Shown: positions 26,177-41,443 of the stretch, one piece after another | Numbering within the stretch: position 1 is the stretch's first letter | Layout of the letters: every line of letters begins with the position of its first letter | Notes under the pieces: generated by a model | Told to the model about the DNA's origin: nothing | What the model saw: the letters and a program-made list of their open reading frames with translations, nothing else | Database searches by the model: none | Position numbers and translations under genes: made by a program | Source of the DNA: a bacterium | GTDB taxonomy: Bacteria > Patescibacteriota > Microgenomatia > JAMCZE01 | Reading direction: 5' to 3' | Length of the DNA: 42,369 nucleotides | Assembly: GCA_021836035.1 (NCBI GenBank) | Contig: JAKBJL010000001.1 | Location: 1-42,369, forward strand

Positions 26177-26249
26177 TAAGCTTATAGCTAATAGCAAATG
26201 ACTCGGGGCTTCTAAGGCTTCGAGTTTGAAGCTATTAGCTATTTGCTAT
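26177..26249. terminator. Probable bidirectional terminator hairpin extended by heptamer arms
   Basis: Lies between convergent genes. Inner stem ACTCGGGGC...GCTTCGAGT (26201-26225). Outer ATAGCTAATAGC (26184-26195) is perfectly complementary to GCTATTAGCTAT (26231-26242). Confidence 0.65.
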
Positions 26250-26929
26250 TTACCCCGATAAAGTCGGGGTTTACCGAAGTTTAAAAAATAAACCTCCACG
26301 GGAGAAAGGGCTGCCGGGATCTTCAGGCCAAATTGGCTGACAAATCTCCCTTTGTCTAGTATTTTCCTTCCCCGGCATTTCAAGCCGGCTACTTCAGTCA
26401 GTTTCAGGAATTTACTCAGAGAGTATTGCCGGACCTGGGGAAAATTGATCATTCGACAAGCTGCCATTAACAAAGGATATCCGGTTTCTTCGACTATCTC
26501 CAGATATCGGGGCAAAAAGGATTCCACGACAAGAATTTCCCCTCCGGGCTTGAGAACTCTTTTAATTTCCGCTAATCCCCCTATTACTGAACGGTCAGTC
26601 TCGTCCAGCGTTTTCTCCGCCAGATGGTGAAATAGAAACTGCGCCAGAACGGTGTCAAAACGGCCGGCAGGCAGCGATAAATACCGTACGTCGGAAACCA
26701 AATGTCGGTGTTTAACTGGAAGCTTTATCCTGACCGAAAATAAATCTACGGTAGTCAGACTATCTACCCTGGCCAAATCATAATTAACCACCCCTGCAGA
26801 ACCGACATCCAGAACTTCGCCTTTAACCGCGGGACTTATTACCCGGCTGATATTTTTATAGAGATCTCCCAGACCCGTTTCCGTTTGCCGGGCATAATTG
26901 CGCCAGAACCGAGCGTAATTTCTCTTCAT
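26246..26929 (-). CDS. Class I SAM-dependent methyltransferase
   Basis: VLDVGSAG, FDTVLAQFLFHHL, EIKRVLKPGG. Confidence 0.85.
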   Translation of the reverse strand: MKRNYARFWRNYARQTETGLGDLYKNISRVISPAVKGEVLDVGSAGVVNYDLARVDSLTTVDLFSVRIKLPVKHRHLVSDVRYLSLPAGRFDTVLAQFLFHHLAEKTLDETDRSVIGGLAEIKRVLKPGGEILVVESFLPRYLEIVEETGYPLLMAACRMINFPQVRQYSLSKFLKLTEVAGLKCRGRKILDKGRFVSQFGLKIPAALSPVEVYFLNFGKPRLYRGK

Positions 26930-27675
26930 CTTTTTTGCACCAGAACCAATAGCGAAACTCCAAAAGGCAAGTCAAAATATTTTAATAGCTCATTTTCGGT
27001 TCGCAAAATCCACAGCAAAACGCTATTCAAGACGCCGGGTACTAACAGCAAATCGGTCTTAATCCGGGCCTTATCCCCTGCCAAGCGCTCCAAACTTGTT
27101 CTTAAAAGCCACCAGGGAAAAAAGAAGGAAATAAAATAGCTGCTTTTTTTTATTTTAAAACCCCTGTCCTCCAATGGCCGTTGCAAATCTTCCCGCCGGT
27201 AGCGCCGGAAATGCCCCAGCCTTTTATCCCGGCTGCTCCAAAGCGAAGGAAAGGCCGGCACAGTAACCAAAAAATAACCCCCGTTTTTTAAGACTCTATT
27301 TATTTGGTCCAGTACTTTCTCTTCGCTATTAATATGCTCTAATAAATCCAAGGCGATCACAACATCAAAAAAGCGATCAGAATAAGGCAAATGGTTTGCC
27401 ACTCCCCTCTTGATTTTTAATTTTTGCTGCCGGCAAGCAGCAACCGCCCGAGCGGACTTATCGATACCAAATCCTCCGGCGCCTTTTTTTTGTAATTCCG
27501 CGAGCAGCAACCCCGAACCGCAGCCAAGATCCAGAATTTTTTTCCCCCGTAAACTTCCGCTGAAACGAACCAGTAATTCCCCAACCAATTCCCTACGCCC
27601 CCGCGACCACCAATAATCCCGGTCCGCTTGATAATGCAGGTTCCAGTCGTAGTTGGTTATAGCTATTCTAGCCAT
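26926..27675 (-). CDS. Class I SAM-dependent methyltransferase (type often found beside glycosyltransferases)
   Basis: YWWSRGRR, ILDLGCGSG, LDLLEHI, TVPAFPSLWSSRDKRLGHFRRY. 4-bp overlap with the next gene. Confidence 0.9.
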   Translation of the reverse strand: MARIAITNYDWNLHYQADRDYWWSRGRRELVGELLVRFSGSLRGKKILDLGCGSGLLLAELQKKGAGGFGIDKSARAVAACRQQKLKIKRGVANHLPYSDRFFDVVIALDLLEHINSEEKVLDQINRVLKNGGYFLVTVPAFPSLWSSRDKRLGHFRRYRREDLQRPLEDRGFKIKKSSYFISFFFPWWLLRTSLERLAGDKARIKTDLLLVPGVLNSVLLWILRTENELLKYFDLPFGVSLLVLVQKR

Positions 27676-27760
27676 AAAATCCGATGTACCTCTTGATTTT
27701 TAACAATTCCCAAAATATCCCGGCAGACTTTTTCAAGCAGAAAATCGATATCGAAAAGCA

Positions 27761-28420
27761 TTATATAGGCTTTTCGTCTATTGAGAAAGAGAGGCTATTA
27801 TTTAGTTTGCAGCCGCTACCAGAATGGAAGCTTGAGCGTCGGTAATTTCCTTGCCTCTCTGGGCTTCTACTACTTGGATAAAAAGATTGAAGTTTATTTA
27901 TCGCGTCTTGACGGTTATCGGTATTAATTGCGGTAAGAGAATCGAAGGCATTTTGTAGTTTTGAACCCAAGCTGTTTTCGATCCCCTGCTGTAAACTAAA
28001 GTTTTCGAAAACATTTATCAAATTTACCCCTGGGTTATCAGCAGGGTAGAGATTCAATCCGTCAAAAGCTACCGCCCCGTTAGCCCATTCAAGATGGGGC
28101 ATAATCTCGATTTGATTATCGCTGCCGAAATTGAATATATATGTGAGATAGACCCAACCGGTTATCATTTTATGTGCACAGAAGAACGCTTGCCCGTCCG
28201 GATATAAGTAGGAGGTTTTAAGGTACACTCCGAAAATATAATTTGTATTTGGGGTAACATTAATTGGCTGACTAGCCCAAGAGTTGTTATTTATATCTGT
28301 GCTTGGTAAGCGCGTGCTTTTCCCCCTGGTAAAAGTTGTCGTATCTGCCGTCATATTGAAAGTCCCGGGGGAATACCCCCAAACTAAATCCCAATTGGCT
28401 AAGAATTTGCCGGAAAGAAA
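27761..28420 (-). pseudogene. Remnant of a secreted carbohydrate-binding-module protein with a FIMAH-like helical C-terminus
   Basis: SQPINVTPNTNYIFGVYLKT...FDGLNL is CBM-like. GIENSLGSKLQNA...AINKLQSF continues in another frame as IQVVEAQRGKEITDAQASIL after an extra base in the homopolymer at about 27880-27884, followed by an internal stop. No intact N-terminus. Confidence 0.6.
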
Positions 28421-28521
28421 AAATGTACTGCCAGGAGGAGAGCAATTAAGGCACCAAAAATTCTCTTCACGATTTAGATATTACATAGTAATATCGAGGA
28501 GTCAAGAGAAAGGTACTAAAA

Positions 28522-31113
28522 TTACTCGCCTTCTTTATCCCACCATTGGCTGATCCCCTTTAGAGGGTGCATCTTTAGGTGTATTTGACGTTTACCGAGA
28601 AACCAGAAAAGAAGAGCTAAAAAAGTAGCTATCGAAACCAAATAGCCCAACTTTTCGACAGGGCCTAAGGAGTATTGAAAAGTAATTTTATCGCCCGCCT
28701 GCGCTTTTGCCAAAGGAACGTACATAAAACCTGGTCCCGCCCGGTAAATCCTTGCAGTTCGGCCATTTATCAAAGCCCCCCAATTACCGTTAGTAAGCTC
28801 CCTCAATAATACCCCGCCTCCCCGGCTGCTATCTGCCTTAATCTCGATCTCCCGGCTCTCCGGGTTTGGGAACCTGGCTTCATAATTAATCTCCCTGCCG
28901 GGCTCTCCAGTTAAAGCCAAATATATATCCGTCAATAACTCAGTTTCCTGAAGATTCTTCCGCTGGTCGAGGTAATAAGGCAAATTCATCCCTGACCAGA
29001 CAACTTTCCCTCGCTGCCAATTGCCTGCGACAACTAGTGGCCGATCTTTGCTAGTTAAAAGAATCCGGCTGTTTTTCACTAAATCGCTGCCGAGTTGCAC
29101 CTTCCAGGGGCTTTCGCCTGAAGTAGTAGACCCGAAAGGGGCGCTCAGTCCCCAATCCCCTTTCAATTCTCCTGCCGTCAGTTTTTTCACCGGAAGAAAT
29201 ACCGGCAAAGGCCTATCTCCCCAAGGATTCCCCTCAATATAAACATTGCCTCCAGCAGCAAGGTATTGTTCTATAAGTTTACTTTCCGCCATCTGATCCT
29301 TAAATTTCGCTTCATATAAAATAATGAGATTAAACTTTTTCAACTCTTCTAGATTATATCCGGATAAATTCGTGCCGCCCTGTAAAGGTAACAGCTTGGA
29401 AGAATTCACATTAGCCCGCGCTAAAGCACGAAAAATAATATCAAACTGCGCTCGCCCGCCGGTAATTACGAGGGCCGTAGGAACGGTAACTACGGAAAGA
29501 ATGGGTTCGGGTTTTAAATATTCGAAAGCTTTAAAATCCCGGTTTTCTCCCAAAGATTTAATGGGGATATTCTCTGCTGAAAACTTCTGATAATCATCAG
29601 TCTGGGAAACTAAAAATTTATCCACCGCCCACCAATCAAGTAAAAAAAGAGCCTCGTTAAGGTTATTCTTTTGGTGCCAAATAGTTTGCTGAAAATAGAA
29701 ATATGCGTTGGGGTCAGTGATGCAATTGGCGCAATAGTCCCTGGTTTGCGGTAAGTGCGGGTAAAGAATATTAAACCAAACGGCAAGACGCCCATAATCG
29801 CCAGTTCCAAAGCGATACCGCGGTGTATCTTGAAGTTGCATATTCTGGAAAAGCTCACTCCTAGATAGCGGCCGTTCAAACGGGGCGCGCGACATGGGAC
29901 TGCTTAACGGAAATTGTAAAAAAAGCCAGAGCAATAAAAGTCCCATTCCCAATAGGGAGATAACATTAAGAACCAACCGCCTACTTTCTAAAATTGTGGC
30001 ATTGATAACGCCAGCCAAAATGAGAGCAAAAAAGGCTAGGAAGGGTAAAAGCCATTTCGGAAGCCAAATCCCGCCATATATCAAACCTAAAAAGGGAAAA
30101 AGCACCATAGTGTACACCGTTAATCCCCCAACCAACATTAAGATGCCTAGAATAAACTTACCCGACAGATCCTGAGGAATCTTTCTCCGCACAAAACAAA
30201 AAGCCAACAAGATCATACTAAGCAAAAAAACAGAAACCAAGACCGGCTGTAAGGTCCAGAGGTAGGGAATCTGAAAACTATAATGATCAACAATCTGATT
30301 GCCGGGTCGAATAAGGAAAAGAAGATCTCTTAAATATGCTACGTTTCCCTGCGGGGCTAGCTTTGCTGGAGCAGAAAACGGGAAACCGGGAAATCCCAGT
30401 ATTACCGGCGGTAACATTTCAAAAGCGCTTAAGAGAAAACCGGGTATTGCTACTTTGACAAAACTGCCGATAGCGTCCCACAAATTACGATCATAGATCA
30501 GGCCCCAATAGAGCAAAACCAGCAGTAAAACAAATCCCGTTAGCCCTTGGATCGCAAAAGTCAGACCGATAAAAAACACGGTAAAAAGAAAATTGTGCCG
30601 GTTATTCTTTTCTTGTAAATAACTGATAAAGGCCCAGAGCGCCAAGGAAAAGGGCGCTAGGGCAAAAAAACGTTCATAAAGTCCGCTTTCAAAACTCCAT
30701 CCCCACAAGGCCGGAGTTGCAACCAGGCACATCGCCAGAAATAACGGCAGCAGAAATTTACCGGTCAGGCGATTAATAATCAGATACAAACCGAAAGCCA
30801 GAATCCCGGCAGAAAAAACCGTCATAAAGTTAAGGGTAAATTCTGCACTTACATGAAAAAGATTAGCGAAGGAGGCCATTACGGCGTATGGAAAAACGAC
30901 GGGATACCAGGTAAAAAATGCCATGCCCCCCGCCCAAACCGGTAACCACCAGATATGCGGCCAAAACTGCTGGATTAACTTAAGTTGGAAAATGTGGACA
31001 TTAGCATCCCAACCGCGGGGATATCCCGCCCAGCCATAAATCAGATAACTAACCAGAAAGGCAAAACCAAGGAGAAGAACCAGAGAGAAAAGGTGGGAAA
31101 AAATATTTTTCAT
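28522..31113 (-). CDS. GT-C-fold (YfhO / 6-PTPS-related membrane domain) glycosyltransferase-like protein with a large extracytoplasmic domain
   Basis: GWDANVH, WWLPVWAGG...WYP, many hydrophobic segments, C-terminal NWGALING...AGPGFMYVPL plus a final TM helix. Confidence 0.75.
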   Translation of the reverse strand: MKNIFSHLFSLVLLLGFAFLVSYLIYGWAGYPRGWDANVHIFQLKLIQQFWPHIWWLPVWAGGMAFFTWYPVVFPYAVMASFANLFHVSAEFTLNFMTVFSAGILAFGLYLIINRLTGKFLLPLFLAMCLVATPALWGWSFESGLYERFFALAPFSLALWAFISYLQEKNNRHNFLFTVFFIGLTFAIQGLTGFVLLLVLLYWGLIYDRNLWDAIGSFVKVAIPGFLLSAFEMLPPVILGFPGFPFSAPAKLAPQGNVAYLRDLLFLIRPGNQIVDHYSFQIPYLWTLQPVLVSVFLLSMILLAFCFVRRKIPQDLSGKFILGILMLVGGLTVYTMVLFPFLGLIYGGIWLPKWLLPFLAFFALILAGVINATILESRRLVLNVISLLGMGLLLLWLFLQFPLSSPMSRAPFERPLSRSELFQNMQLQDTPRYRFGTGDYGRLAVWFNILYPHLPQTRDYCANCITDPNAYFYFQQTIWHQKNNLNEALFLLDWWAVDKFLVSQTDDYQKFSAENIPIKSLGENRDFKAFEYLKPEPILSVVTVPTALVITGGRAQFDIIFRALARANVNSSKLLPLQGGTNLSGYNLEELKKFNLIILYEAKFKDQMAESKLIEQYLAAGGNVYIEGNPWGDRPLPVFLPVKKLTAGELKGDWGLSAPFGSTTSGESPWKVQLGSDLVKNSRILLTSKDRPLVVAGNWQRGKVVWSGMNLPYYLDQRKNLQETELLTDIYLALTGEPGREINYEARFPNPESREIEIKADSSRGGGVLLRELTNGNWGALINGRTARIYRAGPGFMYVPLAKAQAGDKITFQYSLGPVEKLGYLVSIATFLALLFWFLGKRQIHLKMHPLKGISQWWDKEGE

Positions 31114-31865
31114 TCTCTATTAGTTTTACCATTAGTTGTTATATGTTCCGGTAAGATAATGTGGTAAAGCCTGCGGATACGGAGAAGCTCCCGAAAAATC
31201 GCCAGCGACTTAGAAAGATTGTATTTTATCCGTGTATCGGGATTATGGGTCCAATCGGCCGGGACCTCCGCAATTTTGGCCCCCGCCCGGTGCGCCAGAA
31301 GCAAAAATTCCAAGTCAAAAAGAACGCTGTTGGTTTTTACCTTAGCAAAGGCTTTTTTCCCGATACTCGTTTTGAAAAGTTTAAAACCGCATTGGGGATC
31401 AGCTACTCCGTACGCCAGGAGAAATTTGGAAAGGGTTCCGAAAGATTTTCCCAGAAGCTCCCGGGGAAATCCCTGGCTTTGCAGGACTTTTGCTCCGTGC
31501 TTTTCCCGGGAAGCGACGCTTATATCATGGCCTTCCGTAATCGGTCCCCACAATTGATCAAAGTACCTTATGGGAACAGAAAGATCGGCATCCGTAAATA
31601 AAATATAATCCCCTTTGGCAGCTTTGACTCCGGTCCGCACCGCTGCCCCCTTACCGAGATTACAATGATGGCTAATAAGCTTAATATTCGGAGATTTTTC
31701 GGCTAACTGCCTAACCACAGCCGCGGTTTTATCTATGGAACCGTCATCAATAACTAGTATTTCATAGTTAATCTTGGCCGCTCTAAAAAATCTTCTGATT
31801 TGTTCTATCGTTCCCCCAATTCTCTCCGCTTCGTTAAATGCCGGAATGATTATAGTTAAAAGCAT
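31110..31865 (-). CDS. Polyprenol-phosphate glycosyltransferase (GT2, Dol-P-Glc/Man synthase-like)
   Basis: IIIPAFNEAERI, IDDGSIDKT, NLGKGAAV, FTDADLS, DPQCGFKLF, FDLEFL. ATG at 31865 preferred. Confidence 0.9.
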   Translation of the reverse strand: MLLTIIIPAFNEAERIGGTIEQIRRFFRAAKINYEILVIDDGSIDKTAAVVRQLAEKSPNIKLISHHCNLGKGAAVRTGVKAAKGDYILFTDADLSVPIRYFDQLWGPITEGHDISVASREKHGAKVLQSQGFPRELLGKSFGTLSKFLLAYGVADPQCGFKLFKTSIGKKAFAKVKTNSVLFDLEFLLLAHRAGAKIAEVPADWTHNPDTRIKYNLSKSLAIFRELLRIRRLYHIILPEHITTNGKTNRE

Positions 31866-33885
31866 GCCGTAGATAATATACAAAAAATATCGCAGAAAGA
31901 ATACTGACGAGAAAACTTATTAAAACATCCGTGGTGGGAGAAAAAGAAAGCTTTATTTCTGCCGCAGCGTTATGAATATTTATAAACCCGATCGGGTCCG
32001 ACTCAATCTCCAGCTGCTTTCCACTTTTATCAAAAGCCGACCAGCCCGGCTGATACGAGATTCTAACCAGGAGATCGTGGGGGTTATCCGGAGCAAAAAC
32101 CGTCATCTGCGACCAATTATTCCCCAAGGGGTAGTTGATTCTCAAAGATTCGGCACTCTCTACCCGTCCTAAATATTTTTCCAGTCTTTCTTTATCTAAA
32201 ACAATTTTACCGGATTTTAAGTTATCTGGCTGGCTAAACGTTTTAGCCCAACCCGGTTCCAAGGCCAAAGCTAAAGAGGTATTTGTTGACGGAACTTCAT
32301 AGATAATATCGCCTTCGTATTCATAAACATTTCGAAGCCAGCTGTATTTTCCCGGGTAAGTGTAATCTTTGAAGTAAACCCGGGAATCAGCGGTATTCAC
32401 GACAATATACTTAATACCCAAAGCCTGTAACCAATTAAGAGCAAGCTTCCCATCCGCTCCCTTAAGCAACTGATAGCTTATATGGGCCCACCAGGGATTT
32501 AAGCCTCCGAAATCACCGCCCTTGACCCCCCGCAGTTGGGGAACATTAGTAAAAACATTCAACCATTGCGAGTGGGTTCCCGTAGCATAGACGCGCGTCC
32601 TCGCACTATGTTCCTCTAACCAACGGGCTACCCGATACTCGCTGCTTTGAGAAATATCACTATTGGGTTTTGCCAGATTCGAGAAATTATCAATTCGGGG
32701 AAGGATAAAAATTCCGACCAGAAAAAATAATACGCCCCAGAACGCGATTCGAAGATATTTATTAATTCCCAAATCGCATTCTGTTGCTAAAAGACTGGCT
32801 AGGAAAAGCGCTGAGGAGAGATCTAGCTCGGGCCCGAAACGTTGTAGATAATCATGAGGAAGCGGAAGTAAGGAAAAATCGTAACGGTATTGTAAAAAAA
32901 TCAGGAAAAAGAAAAGCAGAGACCAAATTGCCGTGAGAACGAACGGGAAACTACGAACATTTTTTTGGATTAGATATTTAAGGGAAAAATATATGGTAAC
33001 CAAAGCCGGAAATATCACGAAAATGATAAAGACCGGGTTGCGATACATTCCCCTAACAATTCCCCCCTCCTGAGCAAAACCAATCGCCGCCTCAAGGAAA
33101 GAAGGGTTATACCAAAATAATCCCAGTCCCAAGACAAATAGGGCAACTGCGAAAGCCTGTTTGAGCGTATGGCTACCTGCTCCTCTGGCCATCTCCAGCA
33201 TCAATAAAACTAACACCATAATAACCAGCGGCATAAAAGCCGTAGAAGAAGTTAATAAAATAAACAGAAATGTCATGACACTTGAGAAAAACCAATTTTT
33301 TTGTCCCGTCTCCAGCAGCTTTTTGAAACAAAGCAAAGCTATGGGTAAAACCGCTATACCCCAGGTATGTGCCCCTTCCCCGAAGTAAATCAGAACCAGC
33401 AAGCGCCAGGGTAAAAAATTAAAACCCTGCATAAATTGGGCAATTGGAGAAATTAACAGCGTTCCTAGTGGTATAGCAGAATAAAGCAGGGCGGCAAAAA
33501 ACGCCGGTAGGTTCTTCTTGATCAGCTCTTTGGCTAAGAAGAAACAGGAAATGCTTCCCAAAGTGTAAGCTATACCTATACTTATCCGGTAAATCCCGCC
33601 GGGGTTCACCCCGGAAACAAAACTTGCCAACGCTATAGAAAACGGCACAATCGGTTGGTAGACAAGATAAAATGGAAAGCCAAAATACCAAAACGGATGC
33701 CAGATAATATGTGGGAAACTTTCTAAAATGAATTTCACGTAGGCCAAATATTGGCTTTCAATAGAAGGCATGACCGCGGTATATTCCCCCGTAAACAGCA
33801 AGCGGGTAAAAATTAGGTTCAAAACGGCAAGCAACAATACCGGCAAGCCTCCCGCTAAAATGGCTTTTATCCTGTTATTCTTCAT
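31834..33885 (-). CDS. GT-C-fold (YfhO-like) membrane glycosyltransferase-like protein
   Basis: WHPFWYFGFPFYLVYQP, GEGAH, FWYNPSF, PQLRG, LQALGIKYIVV, VRISYQPGWSA...DPIGFINI. Confidence 0.75.
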   Translation of the reverse strand: MKNNRIKAILAGGLPVLLLAVLNLIFTRLLFTGEYTAVMPSIESQYLAYVKFILESFPHIIWHPFWYFGFPFYLVYQPIVPFSIALASFVSGVNPGGIYRISIGIAYTLGSISCFFLAKELIKKNLPAFFAALLYSAIPLGTLLISPIAQFMQGFNFLPWRLLVLIYFGEGAHTWGIAVLPIALLCFKKLLETGQKNWFFSSVMTFLFILLTSSTAFMPLVIMVLVLLMLEMARGAGSHTLKQAFAVALFVLGLGLFWYNPSFLEAAIGFAQEGGIVRGMYRNPVFIIFVIFPALVTIYFSLKYLIQKNVRSFPFVLTAIWSLLFFFLIFLQYRYDFSLLPLPHDYLQRFGPELDLSSALFLASLLATECDLGINKYLRIAFWGVLFFLVGIFILPRIDNFSNLAKPNSDISQSSEYRVARWLEEHSARTRVYATGTHSQWLNVFTNVPQLRGVKGGDFGGLNPWWAHISYQLLKGADGKLALNWLQALGIKYIVVNTADSRVYFKDYTYPGKYSWLRNVYEYEGDIIYEVPSTNTSLALALEPGWAKTFSQPDNLKSGKIVLDKERLEKYLGRVESAESLRINYPLGNNWSQMTVFAPDNPHDLLVRISYQPGWSAFDKSGKQLEIESDPIGFINIHNAAAEIKLSFSPTTDVLISFLVSILSAIFFVYYLRHAFNYNHSGI

Positions 33886-35189
33886 GAGCGTAAAGATTTT
33901 CCGGTTCGGGGATAAATTTCCAGTAAAACTAACGCCGCAAGCGTTACGAAGGTCAGCAGGTCTCCGATTACGCGGGACCAGCCGTCAAAGCCGTCTTTGG
34001 CGAGCCACAAATGGCTTTTGGCGGTTTGGTCTAAACCTTGCGCCAATTCTTCTCCGGCCGGCAGCGCCGTCTTCCCGCCCATCCAGATAATCAGGGTAAT
34101 TAATACTACGGCGATAAGGAGTCCCGCCATGTTCGGCCAGGGGAAGCGGTTTTGCAGAGTATCGTTAATTTTTACCGTGGCCATCCCCGCCAAAAGCGCT
34201 AAAGCGATGCCCAGCTCCGGGTAGTAGCGCGAGGAACTGGACGAGAGAAAGCCGTGCAGGCCGGCCATGGCGATTAGAACAAAAACAATCGTCCAAAAGC
34301 TTGCCAGAAATACCGGCTGGAGGTTGGCCTTGCGGTCAAAAAGCAGGAAACCGAAAGCCCCCAGGACGGGAACGATAAAAAGCGACAGCGGAATCAGGTT
34401 CGCTAAAACCTGGCGCATTTCGCGGCCCAGCGGCCCGGAGACCATCCACCAGGCAAAGACCGGGTTATACCAAAATGCGGCCAGGGCCCCGGCGATCAGA
34501 AAAACTATCAGGAAGCGTAATAGTTTCAACCGACCGTGTCCTAAAAGCATTTCCGAAAAAGCGGCCAGCACCGCGAAAATCAAATAGGTCAGAAAGCCGA
34601 AGGGTGAAATTAAAACTATCGCCGTGCTCAAGAAGGCCGCGATTAATAAATTGTGGCGGCCGCCGAATCTTAAAAAAGCCATCAGGCTGTAAATCGCCAG
34701 GGGCATTATCCCAAGGCTTGCTATATGCGGCCCGTCATTGCCGGTAAATCCGGCTGACAACCGGCTCTTGGCAAAAAAGTATTCGGGAACAGTGGCCGTT
34801 AAAACCGCAATAATTGCCGCCAGTTTCCGGCCGGTCAAAAAGGAGATCAGGAAGTAAAAGGTTACCGGGAAAAACAGAAAGAAGAGAATCTGCACCAGCT
34901 GTACCGCATAAATAAAGGGCAGGCTGACAATGCGGGAGAGTAAGTTGGCCAGATACGGAATTGCCGGCCCGGAAAAGGGGGCAATCACCGCGGCTGTTCC
35001 CATCAGGGGAGCAGTCAGATAATAATTCAGGGCGACCAGAACAATTAGCGCAGTAAATTCGACCAGTCTCCCTCCCCATTTCCCGGGAGTAACGAGCCCC
35101 GGCAGCCTGCTTTCCCGCAGCCGCTCGCTGATCCGCCGGGCCCGTTTCGCGGCAATGGTTTCCTGAGTTTGCGGAACTATATTTTCCAT
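33882..35189 (-). CDS. Shorter GT-C-like polytopic membrane paralogue
   Basis: GNDGPH, FWYNPVF and RYYPELG parallel motifs in 31834-33885. ATG at 35189 (MENIVPQ), preceded by GGAG, preferred as start. Confidence 0.65.
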   Translation of the reverse strand: MENIVPQTQETIAAKRARRISERLRESRLPGLVTPGKWGGRLVEFTALIVLVALNYYLTAPLMGTAAVIAPFSGPAIPYLANLLSRIVSLPFIYAVQLVQILFFLFFPVTFYFLISFLTGRKLAAIIAVLTATVPEYFFAKSRLSAGFTGNDGPHIASLGIMPLAIYSLMAFLRFGGRHNLLIAAFLSTAIVLISPFGFLTYLIFAVLAAFSEMLLGHGRLKLLRFLIVFLIAGALAAFWYNPVFAWWMVSGPLGREMRQVLANLIPLSLFIVPVLGAFGFLLFDRKANLQPVFLASFWTIVFVLIAMAGLHGFLSSSSSRYYPELGIALALLAGMATVKINDTLQNRFPWPNMAGLLIAVVLITLIIWMGGKTALPAGEELAQGLDQTAKSHLWLAKDGFDGWSRVIGDLLTFVTLAALVLLEIYPRTGKSLRS

Positions 35190-36559
35190 AAAATATCTCC
35201 GTTTCCTTCCCAGACTTTTTGCCCGATATCCTCCCATTTTCGCAAATTTTTAAAGTCATGATAATACTCAAATGAGTCCGGGCCGCTGACGAGTACATAT
35301 GACACGCCAAGTTCCCGTAATGCTGCCAGGGTTTCTTCCGGGCCGCTTCCCTCGCGGATAAGATAAGCCGCCCGTGCCCAGCTTTTTTCTACCGCTGCCT
35401 CGTCCCTTCCTCCCCGGACCTGGTAAAAATCCGCCAGGGCGTTGGACCAAAAAACCGGCGTCCCCGAGAAAAATACCCGCCGGTCCCCGACAATTTCCTT
35501 GATCTCTCCCATTTCCGCTACCAGCTTAGTGGTTTCCCCTAAGTTCCTTATAACCCCCAACTCCCTTGTTGTAAAAGCGGATACAGCCACGGCCATAATT
35601 ATGGGGGCCAAAGCTAGCCGCCGCTTACCGATTGTTATGATCGCTAACCACACTCCGATCTCCAATTCTCCAAACCAGGCAATCCAATCCAGCCAAAAAT
35701 CCGGATCGGCCAAAAGGCGGAAAAGCGTCAGGGCGAGAAAACTAACCAGCCAAATCAGGGCAAACCTTCTTAGCCGGTCAGCTTTCTTATCCAAAAAAGC
35801 TGCTGCGGCAACCGCCAGTCCCACCGGAAGGATAGTCCGCAACCAGTTAAGCAGTTTCCCTGCCAGCACGATCATTCCTTCCCCGCCCAACGAGGAATTG
35901 CCTAAAATGGTCAGCCAAAAACCGGGGGTATACCAAACAGTAGATAGTGCAAGGGCAAGAGCAAAGACAACAAGCAAATGACGGACTGAAACAAAAGGTT
36001 CCCCGGTGGTTGCCAGAAGGGCGATTACTCCTATGAGCATTGTCGGCAGGATGCCCGTATTCGTCAGGAGCAAAAAAGTCAGAGCAACTACCGCGAGGAG
36101 CAAATTCCTTACCGAACGCCTGGCCAGGTAAAAATCCAGAGCGATTAGCCCCCAAGGAAAGAGAGCCAAGGCAAGCGCCGCCGACACCTCGTTTAAAGCA
36201 TACGCCGAGAGGTATTTCCAGGGCAGTACGAGGAAGATTACTATATAAAATAGTATCTTTCTGTCTCTGACTAGCTTCGGGTTTTGGTCAGCCAGCTTCG
36301 AAACCAAAATGCTCCAACCGATAGCAGAAAGAATAAAGCTTAAAGCTATTAGCCAATAGCTTAAAGCTAGGAACGCTTGCCCGGGAAATAACTTATGCAG
36401 TAAAACCAGAAGTATCGGCACCACCGGACCAATGAGATACTTAACCGGCGTCGTCCCCAGGTACCAGTAGGGATACAGGCCGGAGAAGCCATGGGCCGCA
36501 ATGAACCTGGTAAGCGCCAGCGTTACCGGTATTAATGATGTCGTCGGCGGATAAAACAT
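35177..36559 (-). CDS. GT-C-like polytopic membrane paralogue
   Basis: LYPYWYLGTTPVKYLIGPVVP, VWYTPGFW, YQVRGG, LRELGVSYVLV...YYHDFKN parallel motifs in 31834-33885. Confidence 0.7.
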   Translation of the reverse strand: MFYPPTTSLIPVTLALTRFIAAHGFSGLYPYWYLGTTPVKYLIGPVVPILLVLLHKLFPGQAFLALSYWLIALSFILSAIGWSILVSKLADQNPKLVRDRKILFYIVIFLVLPWKYLSAYALNEVSAALALALFPWGLIALDFYLARRSVRNLLLAVVALTFLLLTNTGILPTMLIGVIALLATTGEPFVSVRHLLVVFALALALSTVWYTPGFWLTILGNSSLGGEGMIVLAGKLLNWLRTILPVGLAVAAAAFLDKKADRLRRFALIWLVSFLALTLFRLLADPDFWLDWIAWFGELEIGVWLAIITIGKRRLALAPIIMAVAVSAFTTRELGVIRNLGETTKLVAEMGEIKEIVGDRRVFFSGTPVFWSNALADFYQVRGGRDEAAVEKSWARAAYLIREGSGPEETLAALRELGVSYVLVSGPDSFEYYHDFKNLRKWEDIGQKVWEGNGDILWKI

Positions 36560-36563
36560 CGGC

Positions 36564-37109
36564 TTATGTTCCCTTTTCCTCTAATACGTACCTATAGGCA
36601 AACCACCAAAAGCCAAAGAGCCAGATAATCGTCAGAAAAGCCGCGAGGTAGTCGTGGTAAATATAGCCGTAAATCGGGCGCAGATAAGCAAAAATCAAAA
36701 CGATCACCGAAAGCCGCGAGAGGTTGATCAGGAAGGTCCCCAGAAGCCCGATTAAAAAAACTTCCAGGACAGAGCCGATAGTATAGCGGCTGTCCCGCAA
36801 CCCGGCCAGAAGGGTAATAAAAAAAAGCAGGAGGCTCTGCCACCCTAAACAATTCCAGGTCATTTCCAGAAAAGTAGCGTTGACCATAAATCCGTTAGTG
36901 TAAGTAACAATTTTCAAAGGAAAAGGCGACAGCAGCAGGGCGACCATGCCTACTTCTATCGGGACGAGATATTTTTGCAGAGCATGGTAAAGAATAAACC
37001 GTTCCGCTAATTTTGTCAGAGCCTCGTTAAAAGTTAGCATCAACGGCAGCAAGGCCAAAAATATAGCCAGGAGCGCAAAGATTACGCTAAAAGTCTTTTT
37101 AGGCCGCAA
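36564..37109 (-). CDS. Exosortase/archaeosortase family transpeptidase
   Basis: Polytopic 181 aa with the catalytic-triad pattern: Cys in EMTWNCLGWQS (36849-36851), Arg in INLSRL (36714-36716), His in YHD (36654-36656). TTG start overlaps the upstream gene's end. Confidence 0.85.
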   Translation of the reverse strand: MRPKKTFSVIFALLAIFLALLPLMLTFNEALTKLAERFILYHALQKYLVPIEVGMVALLLSPFPLKIVTYTNGFMVNATFLEMTWNCLGWQSLLLFFITLLAGLRDSRYTIGSVLEVFLIGLLGTFLINLSRLSVIVLIFAYLRPIYGYIYHDYLAAFLTIIWLFGFWWFAYRYVLEEKGT

Positions 37110-40100
37110 GGGGGGTTCGCCTCCTCTCTTTCAGCCAAAGAATTGTGCCGATAAGAACCGGAGCGGCTGCCAGGAGAATGAAGCTATTTTCCGGGACGGT
37201 GATAGCCGAAGGAGGCTGAATATTACTGATATAGTTGGCAGCGGAGCCATCGTAGCCTAAATTATAGCTCCCGCCGGCACCGGCGGCGGTTCCGATGATC
37301 TCAAAATACAGACGGCAGGGCGAAGCTTCGGTACAAGTGTAGCCGGAAGTAACGCTGGCAGTCTGGGCGTGCAAACCGAGAGCAGTCGAAGGAGTATATT
37401 GGATATTACTGCTGGTTCCCAAAACCGTGTAAGTAGCTCCGGTCCCGCAAGGGTCCCCCGTCCCGCCGCTGCAATAGCCCACCACAAAATTCCAGGTAAT
37501 AGTTTTACTGCCGGTGGGTTGGAGGGCAACATAATCGTTATATGTCCAGGTCCCGGACGGAAGGGGAACCGTTCCTGTCCCGGTCGGCAGTTTTTGGGAG
37601 TACCAGTAAGCCGTTGTAGTTTTGGTTACTGTCAAGGTAGCGTTGCTTGCTCCCGACGTAGCCCCCCGCATACTTTTCCCGACATTGACCACACCGGTTG
37701 ACAAATCAAAGCCGATTTCGTCAGTAGCGCTGTTCCAGAAATAAAAATTCGTCACGGTGGAAGCATAAGTGCTGGGAGCTCCGCGGGTTAGGGAAAAAAG
37801 CGTCACCGTCAAAATAAGAACCAGGGCTAATACTGCCCTGCCTATAAAACGCCGGCCCCGGTACCTTATGGTAAAGCGGTTAAAACGGTTGTTCGCCGAA
37901 GCAAGTGCCAGATAGGAATTAACTTCATATGCCGCCGCGGGTAAAGCCGGGGTAGGGGTAGATACCCCCCGCCCGCCGAAGATCCCGGAAATCAGCCGGT
38001 AGAAACGCCCGCGGGTAAAGACGTCCGTAATCCGCCCCGTTTTCGGCGTCCGGAACCAGGGCCCTTCCCGGCTTTCCAGAAAACCTTTTACCGAAGCGTA
38101 CGCCTGAAACGGCACGACCAAATAGGAAAGGGCTATAAAGCTGGCGATACCCAGATAATCCTTTTCTTCCGATTCTTCTAGAAATAATCCCACCACATTT
38201 ACCAAGGGCAGGGAAAGCATGTTGGTTAAAACCAGGGACCATCCCCAAAGCGCCGTCCAGAAAGGCAGGCGGGCGCCGAAAACTACTTCCGAAAAAAGCC
38301 AGGATAAAGTTCCGGCCAAAAAGAAGGCCGCCTGGAGGTAGTAAGGCGCAAGATAAAAAACTTCGACCTTCTCCGGAGCCGTCAGCCTATTAGAGGCCAA
38401 AAGTTTCGCCACCATTTTGCGGATATTGTTGCTGTGCCCCTCCGCCCAGCGCATTCTTTGCCTCACCAGTCTTTGCAGGGTGGAAACGCATTCGGCCGGA
38501 GCCTGGATGTAGGGGGTATAGACCACTTTGTATCCTTTCTCATAAAGCTTCAGCGTTAACTCAAAGTCCTCGGTAATAGAGGTCCCCCAGCCGACTTCTT
38601 CGAGAGGTGCCCGCCGGATCATATAGACCGATCCGGAAATCATTTTTAGTCCGCCGTAAAGCTCGGTCCCCGCCCTTTCAATGACATAGCTGCCGGCGTA
38701 TTCGCTCCTGACCCCCCGGGTTATCCAATTCTCCGATTTGTTTAAAACGTGCCATTGATAGCCCTGGACCGCCGCTACATTAGAGCGTTGGTAATCCTCG
38801 CGCATGTTGTTTTGGACCTTAAAATACTTCAAAAAGAGGGTTAGGGTGTCCGGATACGGGACAAAATCGGCATCAAAAACGGCGATAAACTCCGTGCGCG
38901 GGTCGGTATTTTTTAAAGCCAAGCCCAAGGCGGCCCCCTTATAGCCGCTTCGGCTGGTGCGATGCAGGTGTTTAAGAACCAGACCGGGACGAACTTCTAC
39001 GCTGGACAGAGTAAAGCCGCTGCCCTCCAGGATTTGGACCCGCCCGTATTTTTCCTGGAAACGGCGGATCAGCTGCGGCGTCTCGTCGGTGGAATCATCG
39101 GCGAGCATTACTTCCAAATCCGGGTAATCTAAATTACAGGCCGCTGTGATTGCCCTTTCCACCACATTCTTTTCGTTATAAAAAGGGACCTGCACGGAAA
39201 TTTTGGGGTACTTTTCCAGGCGGACGTGTTCCAGGTTGGGCTCCAACCCCACCGGGTTCCGGCGCAGTCCTCCGTTTTGTCCCCTGTTTCTGATACCCAA
39301 GATCCAGGACAGAAAGCCGCCTCGGCCGATTAACTCATCTTCCCCCTCCGGTGCAAATCCTCCCAGGGTTTTTTGGGAAAAGGAAAGGACAATGGCTAAT
39401 GTTAAATAGTATTTAAGCGAATAGAGGAAAAAGAGGCTGCCGGTAAAAAGCGAAACAGAAGCTAAAACAAGTCCCAGGCCGGAAACAAAAGTGGCGCTTT
39501 CTAGCAGTTTGACCCAATAAATAATAGAAGCGCCGGAAGCTATAGCTATAACCAAAACCCAAATGAGGCTCCTGGTTTGCCTGCCTAGAAGAGAAATTAA
39601 AGCTTGCGGAGGGGGTGCGGGAGCGAAATTGGGAATAAACCGCTGCCAAATTTGTCCGACTTTTTCCCTGAAGGCGGGAAAGATAACCGGCTTTGGAGCT
39701 CTGCTTCCCGCTTTCTCGGCATATTGCCGGCGGTCTTCCTCCCGAGAGAGATTAGCCCGTTCCAGGGCCAGCTGCACGCCGTGATTACCGACATATCCCA
39801 GCCTGGCGGCAATTTGATGGGAAGAGAGTTCCGGCGCAGTAGCTGCCAAACCCAGGATGGCTTTGACGGCGCTTTCCCGCAATCCGCGCGGGTGCATAAC
39901 TCCCAGCGGATGTTGGTCCCCCATCGCCGGAGCCAAAGCCAAATCCTCCTGTTGGGCCGATAGGTAGCGCTTCTTCCACTTGGCAAAAGTTTTCCGCGAA
40001 ACCTTAAATTCCCGGCAAACGGCTCCGGCTTTTTTCCCGAGGATCAGCACGTCTTCGACCATCCGCTTTCGGGCATAAGCGGAAAGGCGGAGATACCCCG

Positions 40101-40512
40101 GGCACTGCCCTTCCCCCAACCCGGGGTTAATCCGGAAATTGCCGGCATAAGTGCGCCTGGCGGAAGCTAAAGTTAAGTTGCGTTTTTTTAACAACAACCA
40201 TATGCTCCGGCAGCTGAATTTTATCCCCTCTTCTTTTAGTTTGTATTCAATTTTTTGCGGACCGAATTCGGGATGGCCTACGACGATTTTTAGTATTTCA
40301 CGCTCGATATCTGCGGGCTGGCGGTATTTTATAAAATTGATCTTATCCTGTCTTTTCTGACTCTCCTCTGCCTGATTTCGGCGGTAGCTGGCGAGCCACA
40401 GGTAGAGCGTTTTCCGGGATATTCCTAATTTCGCGGCTGCCTTAGTCTTTTGTAGCTTTCCGATTGCGACCCTTTTTAATATTCCCCGTTGGCTGGAAGA
40501 AAAGGCTGGCAC
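37099..40512 (-). CDS. Fusion protein: tandem IS481-transposase-like HTH modules, cellulose-synthase-like GT2, extracellular domain and PEP-CTERM-like (VPEN) sorting tail
   Basis: HTHs: AAAKLGISRKTLYLWL, HPEFGPQKI...SCRSIWLLLKK, VCREFKVSRKTFAKWKKRY, APELSSHQIA...GNHGVQLALER. GT2 motifs: DDSTD, YKGAAL, FDADF (DAD 38866-38874), TED (38566-38574), QRMRW (38446-38460), RTPK. C-terminus: VPEN (37186-37197), hydrophobic helix, KERRR. Confidence 0.85.
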   Translation of the reverse strand: MPAFSSSQRGILKRVAIGKLQKTKAAAKLGISRKTLYLWLASYRRNQAEESQKRQDKINFIKYRQPADIEREILKIVVGHPEFGPQKIEYKLKEEGIKFSCRSIWLLLKKRNLTLASARRTYAGNFRINPGLGEGQCPGYLRLSAYARKRMVEDVLILGKKAGAVCREFKVSRKTFAKWKKRYLSAQQEDLALAPAMGDQHPLGVMHPRGLRESAVKAILGLAATAPELSSHQIAARLGYVGNHGVQLALERANLSREEDRRQYAEKAGSRAPKPVIFPAFREKVGQIWQRFIPNFAPAPPPQALISLLGRQTRSLIWVLVIAIASGASIIYWVKLLESATFVSGLGLVLASVSLFTGSLFFLYSLKYYLTLAIVLSFSQKTLGGFAPEGEDELIGRGGFLSWILGIRNRGQNGGLRRNPVGLEPNLEHVRLEKYPKISVQVPFYNEKNVVERAITAACNLDYPDLEVMLADDSTDETPQLIRRFQEKYGRVQILEGSGFTLSSVEVRPGLVLKHLHRTSRSGYKGAALGLALKNTDPRTEFIAVFDADFVPYPDTLTLFLKYFKVQNNMREDYQRSNVAAVQGYQWHVLNKSENWITRGVRSEYAGSYVIERAGTELYGGLKMISGSVYMIRRAPLEEVGWGTSITEDFELTLKLYEKGYKVVYTPYIQAPAECVSTLQRLVRQRMRWAEGHSNNIRKMVAKLLASNRLTAPEKVEVFYLAPYYLQAAFFLAGTLSWLFSEVVFGARLPFWTALWGWSLVLTNMLSLPLVNVVGLFLEESEEKDYLGIASFIALSYLVVPFQAYASVKGFLESREGPWFRTPKTGRITDVFTRGRFYRLISGIFGGRGVSTPTPALPAAAYEVNSYLALASANNRFNRFTIRYRGRRFIGRAVLALVLILTVTLFSLTRGAPSTYASTVTNFYFWNSATDEIGFDLSTGVVNVGKSMRGATSGASNATLTVTKTTTAYWYSQKLPTGTGTVPLPSGTWTYNDYVALQPTGSKTITWNFVVGYCSGGTGDPCGTGATYTVLGTSSNIQYTPSTALGLHAQTASVTSGYTCTEASPCRLYFEIIGTAAGAGGSYNLGYDGSAANYISNIQPPSAITVPENSFILLAAAPVLIGTILWLKERRRTPLAA

Positions 40513-40520
40513 ATATTTAG

Positions 40521-40547
40521 TGTTACTTATTATGGGTACTCTGTCAA
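40521..40547 (-). promoter_or_regulatory. 27-bp repeat copy 1, containing a TTGACA box; probable promoter/operator of the fusion gene
   Basis: TGTTACTTATTATGGGTACTCTGTCAA. On the - strand: TTGACA-17 bp-AACACT-6 bp-GTG start, consistent with a leaderless transcript. The -10 match is weak. Confidence 0.55.
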
Positions 40548-41443
40548 GAGGATTTTTTATCCGAAGATATATTAGTTGTCTTTATTATCTATATCGGTTT
40601 TTGCCGTTAATTGTTTTTGATAATATCTGTGTATATTTTATATTTACCTTAAATTGTGTAACCATTTTAGAATATTGGCTTTATTTTACGGTAATATTGA
40701 TTATCTACTTGAGAAATATCGTTAATTTTCACCTTTTAGAATAACTTTATAGACCCCCGTTTATTATTTATCGCTTATATATCGGCCGTCATCACAATAT
40801 TTCTTCTTTTTCCCCCCTTCTCTTTTCCTTTAAGGCACGATTGAATCGCCTTATGGGAATAATTCTTTTTATTGCGCATATATATCTTCTAAAATATTTA
40901 TTAACCATAATTCATCATGAATGATTCTTACAATTTTTGATTATCCTTAATTTATTCTTAAATAAACTATAATATCTACTTCCCCTAATTCTTACTTTTT
41001 ATGGTTTTGCCAAAAATAGCCGCCTTTTAACGGTTAATCTTACGATTTGGATCTCTAAATAAAGCTATATTATTAAACGCTGGATAATTTTCTCCTAAAT
41101 ATTCTAATTTCCCCTGTTACCTCTGATTTTTGACCATTTTGGACCCTTCAGAGGTCAGAAAAATGCCAATTTATATAGGTTGTCGCTTTATGAACGTCTT
41201 AGCTATTTTTATTAACCGCGATATTTTGGTTATTAGCTCAAAAAGCGCTTTATGTCGATTCTTAATATTCCATTAATCACGGGTATTTTCTGATTTAGGC
41301 TTCTGCTGGTTCCTTTTGCTAAAGATAACTTAAAAGTTATTTATCAAAAATACCCGGCTAAATATGGGAACCTGGCCGCTCCCCTCCACCGCGAGAATAT
41401 ATATTCTTTTGAAACATTGTGAGATATTACCTGTTAATTATTA

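Follow-up and report, generated by a model that had tools for sequence, protein, structure and literature searches.

What does an exosortase act upon when the only convincing sorting signal in its genome lies at the end of a polytopic glycan synthase? The question is raised by a stretch of 42,369 nucleotides (positions 1-42,369, forward strand, of contig JAKBJL010000001.1, assembly GCA_021836035.1; the whole stretch is called the window here, and all coordinates refer to it), which belongs to a 1.06-Mb, 97.9% complete genome of the Microgenomates-type candidate phyla radiation (CPR). On the minus strand, a fusion gene whose product (P0001) combines helix-turn-helix (HTH) modules, a family 2 glycosyltransferase (GT2) core, an outer domain, and a C-terminal sorting tail is followed by genes for a small exosortase (P0002), four membrane proteins (M1 to M4), and a second, small GT2 (Table 1). 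The original prediction, made from the DNA letters, had seen here a synthase-like protein carrying both a sorting signal and DNA-binding domains, served by a dedicated exosortase and a glycosylation cluster. The reading preferred in this work, which is probable without being secure, is that of a dedicated one-to-one exosortase/target system in Microgenomates-type CPR bacteria, the sole target of which is the C-terminal end of a processive GT2 synthase.

To our knowledge, exosortases occur widely, yet little has been established about their chemistry or their acceptors, and the targets known so far are ordinary secreted proteins, usually many per enzyme. The exosortase/sorting-signal principle is itself already known; what is new here is a sorting-signal system with an unprecedented target, a polytopic glycan synthase, and a minimal enzyme. 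With an enzyme of 181 residues and one adjacent (sometimes fused) substrate in a single-membrane cell, the system represents a minimal two-gene case, and the cleavage site, acceptor, and mechanism are therefore directly testable by co-expression.

The sorting tail

P0001 ends in ...AITVPENSFILLAAAPVLIGTILWLKERRRTPLAA, in which a tripartite layout resembling that of PEP-CTERM proteins occupies the extreme C-terminus: VPEN, 18 hydrophobic residues, and the basic cluster KERRR. Across 30 aligned sequences, P1107 and E1108 hardly change and P1118 never does, in an otherwise variable C-terminus. The distribution of the tail was examined in 74 loci, kept from the 161 relatives returned by a one-genome-per-species scan, using a classifier that demands Pro followed by Glu or Asp, 17 residues that are for the most part hydrophobic and include no more than one charge, and then at least three Lys/Arg within six residues. 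Among family open reading frames (ORFs) of at least 400 residues with an intact 3' end, 48 of 56 were positive; two of the eight misses carry the tail by eye and the other six are split by a frameshift or a run of N, with the tail on the next ORF. The 3'-intact relatives thus keep the tail, the lack of which the original prediction had named as fatal to its proposal. The residue preceding Pro in the 48 tails is mostly Val (25) or Ile (17), while that following PE/PD is N (13), K (10), R (6), F (5), Y (3), I (3), A (3), L (2), W (1), M (1), or S (1), and never P. Of 119 database homologues, 86 were tail-positive, many of the 33 negatives being visibly cut off and a few bearing variant tails. 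The tail has neither the Pro-Glu-Pro signature nor the hidden Markov model (HMM) match that would mark membership of PEP-CTERM.

Within the loci, the tail is exclusive to this GT2 family: of the 862 remaining 3'-complete ORFs that reach 100 residues, the classifier called 10 positive, nine being fusion-gene fragments and the tenth junk, and no non-GT2 protein bears it. In the organism's own genome, a strict tail pattern matches P0001 only, and the loose classifier picks out 11 of 1831 stop-to-stop ORFs, of which P0001 is the sole convincing one and the other 10 look false. A variant subclass of the tail was noticed in P0012, P0041, P0045, P0062, P0085, P0086, P0091, P0094, P0096, P0126, and L035, where the basic cluster is prolonged by a conserved cytoplasmic stretch of ~30 residues ending ...LDxLPV.

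The exosortase and its linkage to the synthase

With the exosortase/archaeosortase signature model TIGR04178, for which 23 bits suffice, P0002 scores 29.3 bits (31.1 when the genome was scanned) and is the only exosortase match above cut-off in its genome. The Pfam model Exosortase_EpsH (PF09721) gives no match for P0002; it matches a fused relative, P0334, at 35 bits (cut-off 25.7). All 27 aligned family members match TIGR04178, and C87, N129, R132, and H152 are invariant among them; Cys, Arg, and His constitute the putative catalytic triad of the exosortase family in an excerpt of the Haft 2023 preprint. Weak hits to subfamily models were obtained with XrtM (26 of the 27 members), ArtC (9), XrtX (9), XrtY (1), and CrtC (1). 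There are 264 homologues of ~180 residues, and among 1.84 billion representative proteins, 302 match the P0002 family at E≤1e-3 and 59 at 1e-30.

The genetic link to the synthase was assessed from several directions. Downstream sequence of at least 700 nt was available for 46 tail-bearing genes; the start of an exosortase gene lies no more than 100 nt past the stop in 24 of these, no more than 1 kb past it in 31, and anywhere downstream on the same strand in 36. When the neighbours in the 74 loci were clustered without bias, leaving aside the fusion family itself, the exosortase came top (43 loci), followed by the M1/M2/M3 membrane family (36) and a GT4 family (12). When 301 genomes sampled evenly from the phylum were examined, with the synthase called at E≤1e-60, the exosortase was found in 14 and the synthase in 12; both were present in 12, the synthase never occurred alone (0 of the 287 genomes without exosortase), and these co-occurrences are not independent events because the carriers lie in few families (own f1, f7, f22, f31, and f58). 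In the two genomes that have the exosortase alone, its gene lies on contigs of 2.0 and 2.5 kb, with a tail-bearing ORF directly upstream. Viewed from the exosortase side, a tail-bearing ORF lies immediately upstream in 9 of the 14 non-own loci of that sample, and two extra exosortase copies in genome G215 have other neighbours.

A further tie is provided by P0334 (946 residues) and P0351 (1227 residues), in which a GT2 core, a signal-peptide-like helix, a Ser/Thr-rich domain, IEVPEN followed by a transmembrane (TM) helix, and a complete exosortase form one chain; a second member identical in length to P0351 occurs in another assembly, and neither P0334 nor P0351 has an HTH. Adjacency, co-occurrence, the one-to-one count, and these Rosetta-stone fusions support an exosortase that is genetically dedicated to the synthase, as judged from sequence comparison. 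The dedicated enzyme that had been claimed is hence borne out by the neighbourhood analysis (24 of 46 loci within 100 nt; 12 of 12 co-occurrences), and the homologues keep the exosortase link, the loss of which had been named in advance as refuting the proposal. In an excerpt of the Haft 2023 preprint, dedicated sorting systems are described as an enzyme and a single target encoded by consecutive genes, with a signature abutting the helix, as is expected there for deeply membrane-embedded enzymes; the adjacency and one-to-one results presented here match that description. A complex prediction of the exosortase with synthase residues 1050-1137 scored 0.00, was run without controls, and counts neither way.

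Several variations on the module were observed in passing. P0252 is a P0002-type exosortase (42% identical) fused to a class-I S-adenosylmethionine (SAM) methyltransferase that is 31% identical to the product of 26926-27675 in the window (E 6e-15), a single-sequence lead. P0312 and P0316 are exosortase relatives of 428-474 residues with an extra C-terminal extension of ~270 residues. Two or three synthase copies per genome, sometimes in tandem and differing in their outer domains, occur in L006/L017, L011/L020, L022/L024, and G215; the multi-copy genomes hold up to three exosortase genes, which points to paralogous expansion of the whole module. Loci L005, L006, L013, L018, L023, L025, L073, and others come from records titled Gammaproteobacteria, Bathyarchaeia, Nevskiaceae, or Dehalococcoidales; these metagenome-assembled genomes are probably mislabelled or mis-binned and not true occurrences outside the CPR.

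Architecture of the fusion protein

A homologue search over 5.8 billion proteins, in which the 7985 candidates sharing most words were scored, returned 463 homologues of P0001 at E≤1e-3. The best 120 of these are 37-56% identical, nearly all of them combine HTH and GT2 Pfam families, and the homologues bear source names such as Woesebacteria, Microgenomates, Chisholmbacteria, and Patescibacteria. P0001 could be aligned with its relatives from its first residues on, and an HTH region recognisable with its own is present in 68 of the 79 family ORFs whose 5' end is intact, the HTH-GT2 relatives including complete chromosomes. Of the 11 unmatched ORFs, four were inspected: one has the same Pfam HTH families, one is of the MerR/HTH_17 type, and two have no HTH family. 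Positions 36500-40700 are contained in one contig each, with no differences, in two per-run assemblies (X1 and X2, from one study and possibly from the source sample). A sorting signal on a synthase-like protein with predicted DNA-binding (HTH) domains, as originally proposed, is therefore an architecture conserved across relatives, and the assembly error that might have produced it is contradicted by two assemblies showing the same fusion.

The HTH region scores above the Pfam cut-offs for HTH_23 (35.3 bits), HTH_28 (34.4), and HTH_Tnp_1 (33.2), and the first module matches the N-terminus of IS481 transposases in NCBIfam at 80.8 bits, below the cut-off of 224; the Pfam and NCBIfam scans found no integrase core in P0001. 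The region was modelled as helical at a predicted local distance difference test (pLDDT) of 70-88, and a sequence search gave no solved relative for it. By their family matches, the modules are of transposase type and putatively DNA-binding.

The synthase core is recognised by Pfam GT2 families at residues 436-757 (59-70 bits). Among 30 sequences D473/D476, D547-A-D549, T647-E-D649, and Q685-R-M-R-W689 are invariant; D, DxD, TED, and Q(Q/R)xRW are the motifs by which processive membrane GT2 synthases are recognised. The AlphaFold model of the whole protein has a pLDDT of 62.9 overall, with 80-92 in the GT2 core and 60-80 in the C-terminal beta domain, and its best Foldseek matches are BcsA (E 6e-14), the hyaluronan synthase HAS (6e-11), and Chs1 (1e-8), besides plant CesA; the TM-scores amount to no more than 0.2-0.3 of the query, a consequence of the length and moderate quality of the model. 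Equivalog models from which the polymer could be read off score far below cut-off (PgaC 91.1 versus 422 bits, CelA 81.8 versus 699, NodC 35 versus 550).

Beyond the core lies an internal segment resembling a signal peptide, with K/R dominating positions 883, 885, 886, 888, and 892 among 30 sequences, a hydrophobic stretch of 18 residues at ~890-909, and column counts of V20/A6/T2/I1 at position 915 and A29/S1 at position 917. Signal peptidase I follows the -3/-1 rule, which the V-x-A917 segment fits, and cleavage may occur there, as suggested by the motif. Thr (17%), Gly (12.5%), and Ser (11%) abound in residues 918-1105, which are modelled as beta strands at pLDDT 60-80 and would be located outside the cell, held between two helices, on the basis of the positive-inside rule. 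The region between synthase core and tail is 254-2890 residues long in relatives (median 661, n=51, excluding one frameshift-truncated ORF with 25 residues) and bears different precomputed Pfam domains in different relatives, such as the lectin-like Laminin_G_3 and DUF2341. A stand-alone form of the C-terminal module was not found at E≤0.01 among proteins of 30-624 residues. A language-model search with this module gave leads only, namely archaeal hypothetical proteins of ~250 residues at 0.92, and PEP-CTERM and IPTL-CTERM clusters at ~0.77.

The membrane paralogues

M1, M2, and M3 are distantly related to one another in sequence, with BLASTP E values of 6e-17 for M1 and M3 (over ~430 residues), 4e-4 for M1 and M2, and 6e-6 for M2 and M3. 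M4 stands on weaker ground because its similarity to M3 (E 8e-5) spans only the first ~90 residues; of the four paralogues claimed in the original prediction, the first three are thus upheld and M4 is probably the fourth. M2 homologues were found in 12 related loci and M4 homologues in two.

The fold was examined on an AlphaFold 2 model of M1 (23 sequences; pLDDT 82, predicted TM-score 0.82), to which M2 to M4 are tied by sequence similarity alone. In a Foldseek comparison with the PDB, ranks 1-29 consisted only of glycosyltransferases of the GT-C fold (E from 1.4e-5, query TM-scores 0.32-0.60), including STT3, AglB, PglB, AftA, DPY19, ArnT, AftD, ALG12, and PimE. VIA-align, an independent all-against-representatives structure alignment, gave STT3B with Z 16.0 (413 residues aligned, root-mean-square deviation 4.0), AglB 15.9, DPY19 15.2, ArnT 13.9, and Pmt 13.6. 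Residues 341-460 additionally match the C-terminal globular domains of AglB (Z 8.4) and PglB (Z 7.9), and the model therefore has the two-part build of an oligosaccharyltransferase. M1 is accordingly assigned, from its predicted structure, a GT-C fold of the oligosaccharyltransferase-like kind.

Active GT-C enzymes usually carry a catalytic Asp or Glu in the first extracytoplasmic loop. Because such a residue was not found in M1 and M3 (see below), the M proteins are called GT-C-fold proteins here and not proven transferases. The conserved acids are D291, E298, D386, E431, and D435 in M1, and E26 and E60 in M2. None of the four proteins reaches the cut-off of any Pfam family, nor does a PTPS_related, YfhO, PMT, or STT3 model score above cut-off in M1 to M4; M2 also lacks any NCBIfam family, and a profile of M1 and M3 found no PDB sequence and no NCBIfam family; below threshold, PTPS_related was reached by M4 (E 0.0055) and by 7 of 23 sequences of the joint M1 and M3 alignment (best E 2.7e-4). 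Of the GT-C assignment originally made, the fold of M1 holds, but with no conserved first-loop acid in M1 and M3 it is too early to speak of active transferases.

Proposed mechanism and alternative explanations

From the architecture, conservation, linkage, and folds described above we infer topology, DNA binding, cleavage, transfer, and acceptor as follows. The HTH modules and the GT2 catalytic domain would be cytoplasmic; the signal-peptide-like helix 890-909 would place the variable Thr/Gly/Ser-rich domain outside the cell, and the last helix would return to the cytoplasm to end in KERRR. The co-translated exosortase (Cys87/Arg132/His152) is proposed to recognise [V/I]-P-E-x abutting the last helix and to cut there; in the manner of archaeosortase A and sortases, it would then hand the newly formed C-terminus over to an acceptor, whether lipid or glycan, and this transfer would fix the outer domain at the surface. 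The V-x-A917 site may let signal peptidase free the outer domain from the synthase. The GT-C-fold proteins, joined in this locus by the putative polyprenol-phosphate-sugar synthase, could act outside the membrane on the same product, adding sugars to the outer domain or else to the polymer. The regulator and the decorated surface carrier that the original prediction also saw in this polypeptide are candidate roles. The sortase-type signal on a polytopic glycan synthase suggests that making the polymer and anchoring the surface protein are physically and directly coupled in CPR bacteria, a group in which little is understood of the envelope and of the structures for attachment to hosts. Repeated fusion of HTH modules and synthase hints at an unexplored mode of regulation, and in at least one branch a different HTH class (MerR/HTH_17) occupies the same position.

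A number of observations weigh against this proposal. The target is already polytopic, and re-anchoring therefore seems needless unless the outer domain is also freed at its N-terminal end, a cut that may take place but is deduced from the motif only; cleavage and transfer by the exosortase are likewise argued from genetics and architecture. The tail has no match to any curated sorting-signal model (E≤10; Pfam and NCBIfam whole-protein scans), and no named Xrt, Art, or Crt subfamily is reached by the exosortases; P0002 comes closest with XrtM, at 21.9 bits where 125 are required. A simple hydropathy count is compatible with either membrane face for Cys87. As regards linkage, no exosortase lies downstream in 10 of the 46 testable loci, synthase and exosortase are on different contigs in family f22, and the 12 co-occurring genomes fall within four families (own f1, f7, f22, and f31). 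As regards glycosylation, no acidic column of at least 85% precedes residue 291 in M1 (19 sequences) or residue 170 in M3 (9 sequences), homologues of the small GT2 occur in 5 of the 74 loci by clustering (7 loci by phmmer), and the methyltransferases are not conserved neighbours, having no homologues in related loci.

It is unlikely that the last helix stays in place for good as a structural anchor, as in BcsB or the fused AcsAB, with an outer domain that guides or binds the nascent polymer and is not cut; in this explanation, the exosortase homologue would have a different substrate or would serve the same glycan pathway without proteolysis. The order of synthase, TM helices, outer domain, and C-terminal TM helix does recall a BcsA-BcsB fusion, BcsA is the best match of the whole-protein model, lectin-like outer domains (Laminin_G_3, DUF2341) occur in relatives, and in the triple fusions the chain simply runs on into the exosortase. 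A structural anchor would, however, have no need for the conserved Pro-Glu right at the outer end of the helix together with the basic cluster, which are kept across domains of 254-2890 residues. Cys, Arg, and His of the exosortase are, moreover, invariant, and the organism's own genome offers no other candidate substrate.

Doubtful, too, is the possibility that the exosortase and one or more GT-C-fold proteins form a transamidase-like machine in the manner of the glycosylphosphatidylinositol (GPI) transamidase, with M1 presenting a lipid-linked glycan to receive the cut C-terminus. In the GPI transamidase a Cys protease is paired with PIGU, a GT-C-fold subunit that serves a C-terminal transamidase and is not a glycosyltransferase. 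This alternative is raised because PIGU subunits are among the structural matches of M1 (Z 9.2-11.7), and it is favoured by the M1 gene following 4 nt after that of the exosortase, by GT-C-like proteins being the second commonest neighbour (36 of 74 loci), and by the want in M1 and M3 of the first-loop acid expected of active GT-C enzymes. True transferases (STT3, AglB, DPY19, and ArnT) nevertheless score higher (Z 14-16), M1 keeps the invariant acids D291, E298, and D386, and a common fold shows no function. A bolder extension of the preferred mechanism, which must count as speculative and improbable, is that of a self-contained surface-layer polyprotein, cut after Ala917 by signal peptidase and at VPEN by the exosortase, whose outer domain would be joined covalently through its C-terminus to a lipid-linked glycan or to its own polymer while the membrane-tethered HTH modules couple the state of the synthase to transcription; its details, in which a GT-C partner would act like the GPI transamidase, the product would be a proteoglycan-like coat, and the HTH modules would operate through upstream GGYTACAYAATT sites (see below), are held with equally slight expectation.

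That the locus is an ordinary exopolysaccharide (EPS) locus with a one-to-many PEP-CTERM/exosortase system, the tail of the synthase being incidental, is very improbable: exosortases are often encoded in EPS loci according to an excerpt of the Haft 2023 preprint, and related loci hold GT4, epimerase, and PMT_2-like genes, but the genome has a single convincing tail, no other family in the 74 loci bears it, and Pro never follows PE in 48 tails, which match no PEP-CTERM model. The idea of an artefactual long ORF (an assembly chimera, a remnant of an insertion sequence (IS) element reading into a GT2 gene, or a pseudogene), suggested by N-terminal modules homologous to the DNA-binding regions of IS481-type transposases and by transposase genes close by (at 21535-22410 and just past the end of the window), can be dismissed almost entirely in view of the HTH-GT2 order kept in 68 of 79 5'-complete relatives from many assemblies, the alignment from the first residues, the single contigs in X1 and X2, and the dissimilarity of the modules to the local transposase at 21535-22410.

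Comparison with known systems

The closest known system to the proposed exosortase/target pair is that of XrtG and Firmicu-CTERM in Firmicutes, in which consecutive genes code for the Firmicu-CTERM protein, for XrtG, and for two glycosyltransferases associated with it (excerpt of PMC12854382). Both have a monoderm-type host, a dedicated target, a small exosortase, and glycosyltransferase genes in consecutive order; in the XrtG system, however, target and GT2 are separate proteins, whereas here they are one polypeptide that also bears an HTH. P0001 weakly matches the model of the XrtG-associated GT2 (TIGR03111, 29 bits). The XrtG model is hit by none of the 27 exosortases and the tail has no Firmicu-CTERM match; the likeness is confined to gene order. 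Literature on exosortases and PEP-CTERM proteins in Patescibacteria and the CPR, a body of work from which most subscription journals fell outside the scope, contained no description of the present system; the claim that no system of this architecture had been described stands to that extent, with the qualification that XrtG/Firmicu-CTERM shares the gene logic using separate proteins.

PEP-CTERM/XrtA-XrtB systems share a tail of Pro-Glu, TM helix, and basic cluster as well as an exosortase placed among polysaccharide genes, but the second Pro is missing here in 48 of 48 tails, no HMM matches, and the pairing is one-to-one. A typical exosortase is, moreover, far longer than 181 residues. In the archaeosortase A (ArtA) system, the helix is removed and a lipid attached, and the substrate is heavily glycosylated in dependence on Dol-P-sugar synthases and a GT-C enzyme. 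That system, with its PGF-CTERM signal on the Haloferax S-layer glycoprotein, also resembles the present one, so far as excerpts of the sources describe it, in its Cys/Arg/His enzyme, its signature abutting the membrane, and its C-terminal helix. It differs in serving many substrates with ordinary N-terminal signal peptides, where here there is one polytopic enzyme, and in the motif (PGF versus PEx); the closest archaeosortase model, ArtC, is hit weakly by 9 of the 27 members.

The synthase itself resembles the BcsA, HAS, chitin, and poly-N-acetylglucosamine (PNAG) synthases in the motifs D, DxD, TED, and QRxRW, in the TM helices flanking the catalytic domain, and in its top structural matches. 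It has no PilZ domain, and instead carries the N-terminal HTH and a C-terminal outer domain with a sortase-type tail. For the glycosylation genes, the nearest parallels are GtrB/CsbB with GT-C (YfhO) and the Pgf system of S. mutans, in which a GT2 like a polyprenol-phosphate-sugar synthase (best NCBIfam hit PgfS here) is likewise encoded next to GT-C-fold proteins; the acceptor of the Pgf system is a sortase-anchored, Thr-rich adhesin. Such three-component glycosylation differs in that no flippase was identified here, M1 to M4 fall below the YfhO, PTPS_related, and PMT cut-offs, and the small GT2 has no TM helix.

Locus layout, accessory genes, and neighbouring features

The seven ORFs between 40512 and 28522 overlap or lie at most 4 nt apart, and the ORF coordinates and family scans confirm the gene order and tight one-strand packing that had been described. 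The layout recurs in many independent assemblies and is, because of that repetition, more than chance.

Table 1. Features of the fusion protein and of the surrounding locus, in window coordinates.
Feature	Position	Strand	Description
Fusion gene, P0001	37099..40512	-	1137 residues; twin HTH, processive GT2 synthase, outer domain, sorting tail
Twin transposase-type HTH modules	39700..40497	-	residues ~6-125 and ~145-271; predicted cytoplasmic
Membrane-embedded GT2 synthase core	37963..39609	-	residues ~302-850; N-terminal TM hairpin, catalytic domain 436-757, C-terminal TM bundle
Signal-peptide-like segment	37762..37866	-	residues 883-917; basic stretch, ~18 hydrophobic residues, conserved small-x-Ala
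Thr/Gly/Ser-rich beta domain	37198..37761	-	residues 918-1105; predicted extracytoplasmic; variable part of the family
C-terminal sorting signal	37102..37197	-	V1106-P-E-N1109, TM 1110-1127, K1128-E-R-R-R1132, then TPLAA
Mini-exosortase, P0002	36564..37109	-	181 residues; start overlaps fusion-gene stop by 11 nt
M1, P0003	35177..36559	-	460 residues; predicted GT-C-fold membrane protein; 4-nt gap after exosortase
M2, P0004	33882..35237	-	451 residues; polytopic membrane paralogue; overlaps neighbours
M3, P0005	31834..33885	-	683 residues; polytopic; C-terminal outer domain and final TM; overlaps neighbours
Small GT2, P0006	31110..31883	-	257 residues; polyprenol-phosphate-sugar-synthase-like; overlaps neighbours
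M4, P0007	28522..31113	-	863 residues; large polytopic membrane protein; overlaps small GT2 gene
Frameshifted remnant	27761..28354	-	197 codons; between M4 and methyltransferases
Two class-I SAM methyltransferases	26926-27675, 26246-26929	-	Pfam matches; system membership uncertain
AT-rich spacer	40513..42369	.	27-39% GC, no long ORFs; upstream of operon

The small GT2 matches Glycos_transf_2 in Pfam at 116.8 bits, and its best NCBIfam hits (PgfS, PpgS, ArnC, and AglJ) are all under cut-off. Its best solved relatives are the P. furiosus Dol-P-Man synthase (DPMS, 5mlz; E 5e-19 over residues 6-237), GtrB (sll0501), and ArnC, in keeping with the polyprenol-phosphate glycosyltransferase originally proposed. 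There is no hydrophobic segment in its 257 residues, so that C-terminal membrane helices of the GtrB/DPMS type are absent; soluble or peripheral polyprenol-phosphate sugar synthases exist elsewhere. The two methyltransferases, reported from the outset as following a pseudogene, are both class-I SAM enzymes by Pfam (Methyltransf_23 at 84.4 bits; Methyltransf_11 at 71.6 and 35.5 bits). Together with the small GT2, they are regarded as accessories and not as core components because they are rarely or never linked elsewhere. The pseudogene is the frameshifted remnant, for which Pfam, NCBIfam, and a further model search returned no family and whose helical C-terminal motif runs into another frame (...LQSF / FIQVVEAQRGKEITDAQ...) before a stop.

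Upstream of the operon, a low-GC stretch of ~2 kb extends from 40513 to ~C4:42900, up to an IS-type transposase gene outside the window, with neither long ORFs nor an Rfam match; Rfam at gathering thresholds yielded no family anywhere in the window, and no tRNA was found there. A promoter scan returned 34 promoter-like sites where 22.8 ± 4.4 were expected, concentrated in this spacer, while terminator-like sites were fewer than expected and the scan assigns no operon boundary. The element GGYTACAYAATT occurs three times in the spacer on the operon (minus) strand, at 40652-40663, 41559-41570, and 42142-42153, and nowhere else in the 1.06-Mb genome, a count that is circular because the pattern was derived from the three copies; it may be a binding site of the HTH modules or else a promoter element.

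On the other side of the operon, 21535-22410 (minus strand) encodes a transposase with an rve integrase core, unrelated to the fusion HTH modules (BLASTP E 0.34). Two giant paralogues of 2507 and 2906 residues, at 4807-12330 and 12669-21389 (plus strand), contain seven Laminin_G_3 repeats each and no exosortase-type tail by the strict pattern. At 46-4407 (plus strand), a protein of 1453 residues, the ORF of which may begin before the first base of the contig, carries at residues 1115-1170 a Peptidase_S74 (endosialidase chaperone) domain, as found in phage tail spikes and fibres. Between the giant genes, 4452-4817 (plus strand) encodes a small protein resembling the 23S_rRNA_IVP/bAvd family (24 bits, below cut-off). 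Proteins of the bAvd type accompany diversity-generating retroelements, and a clear 23S_rRNA_IVP/bAvd member (135 bits) lies beside the exosortase in another locus, at L019:15572-15940.

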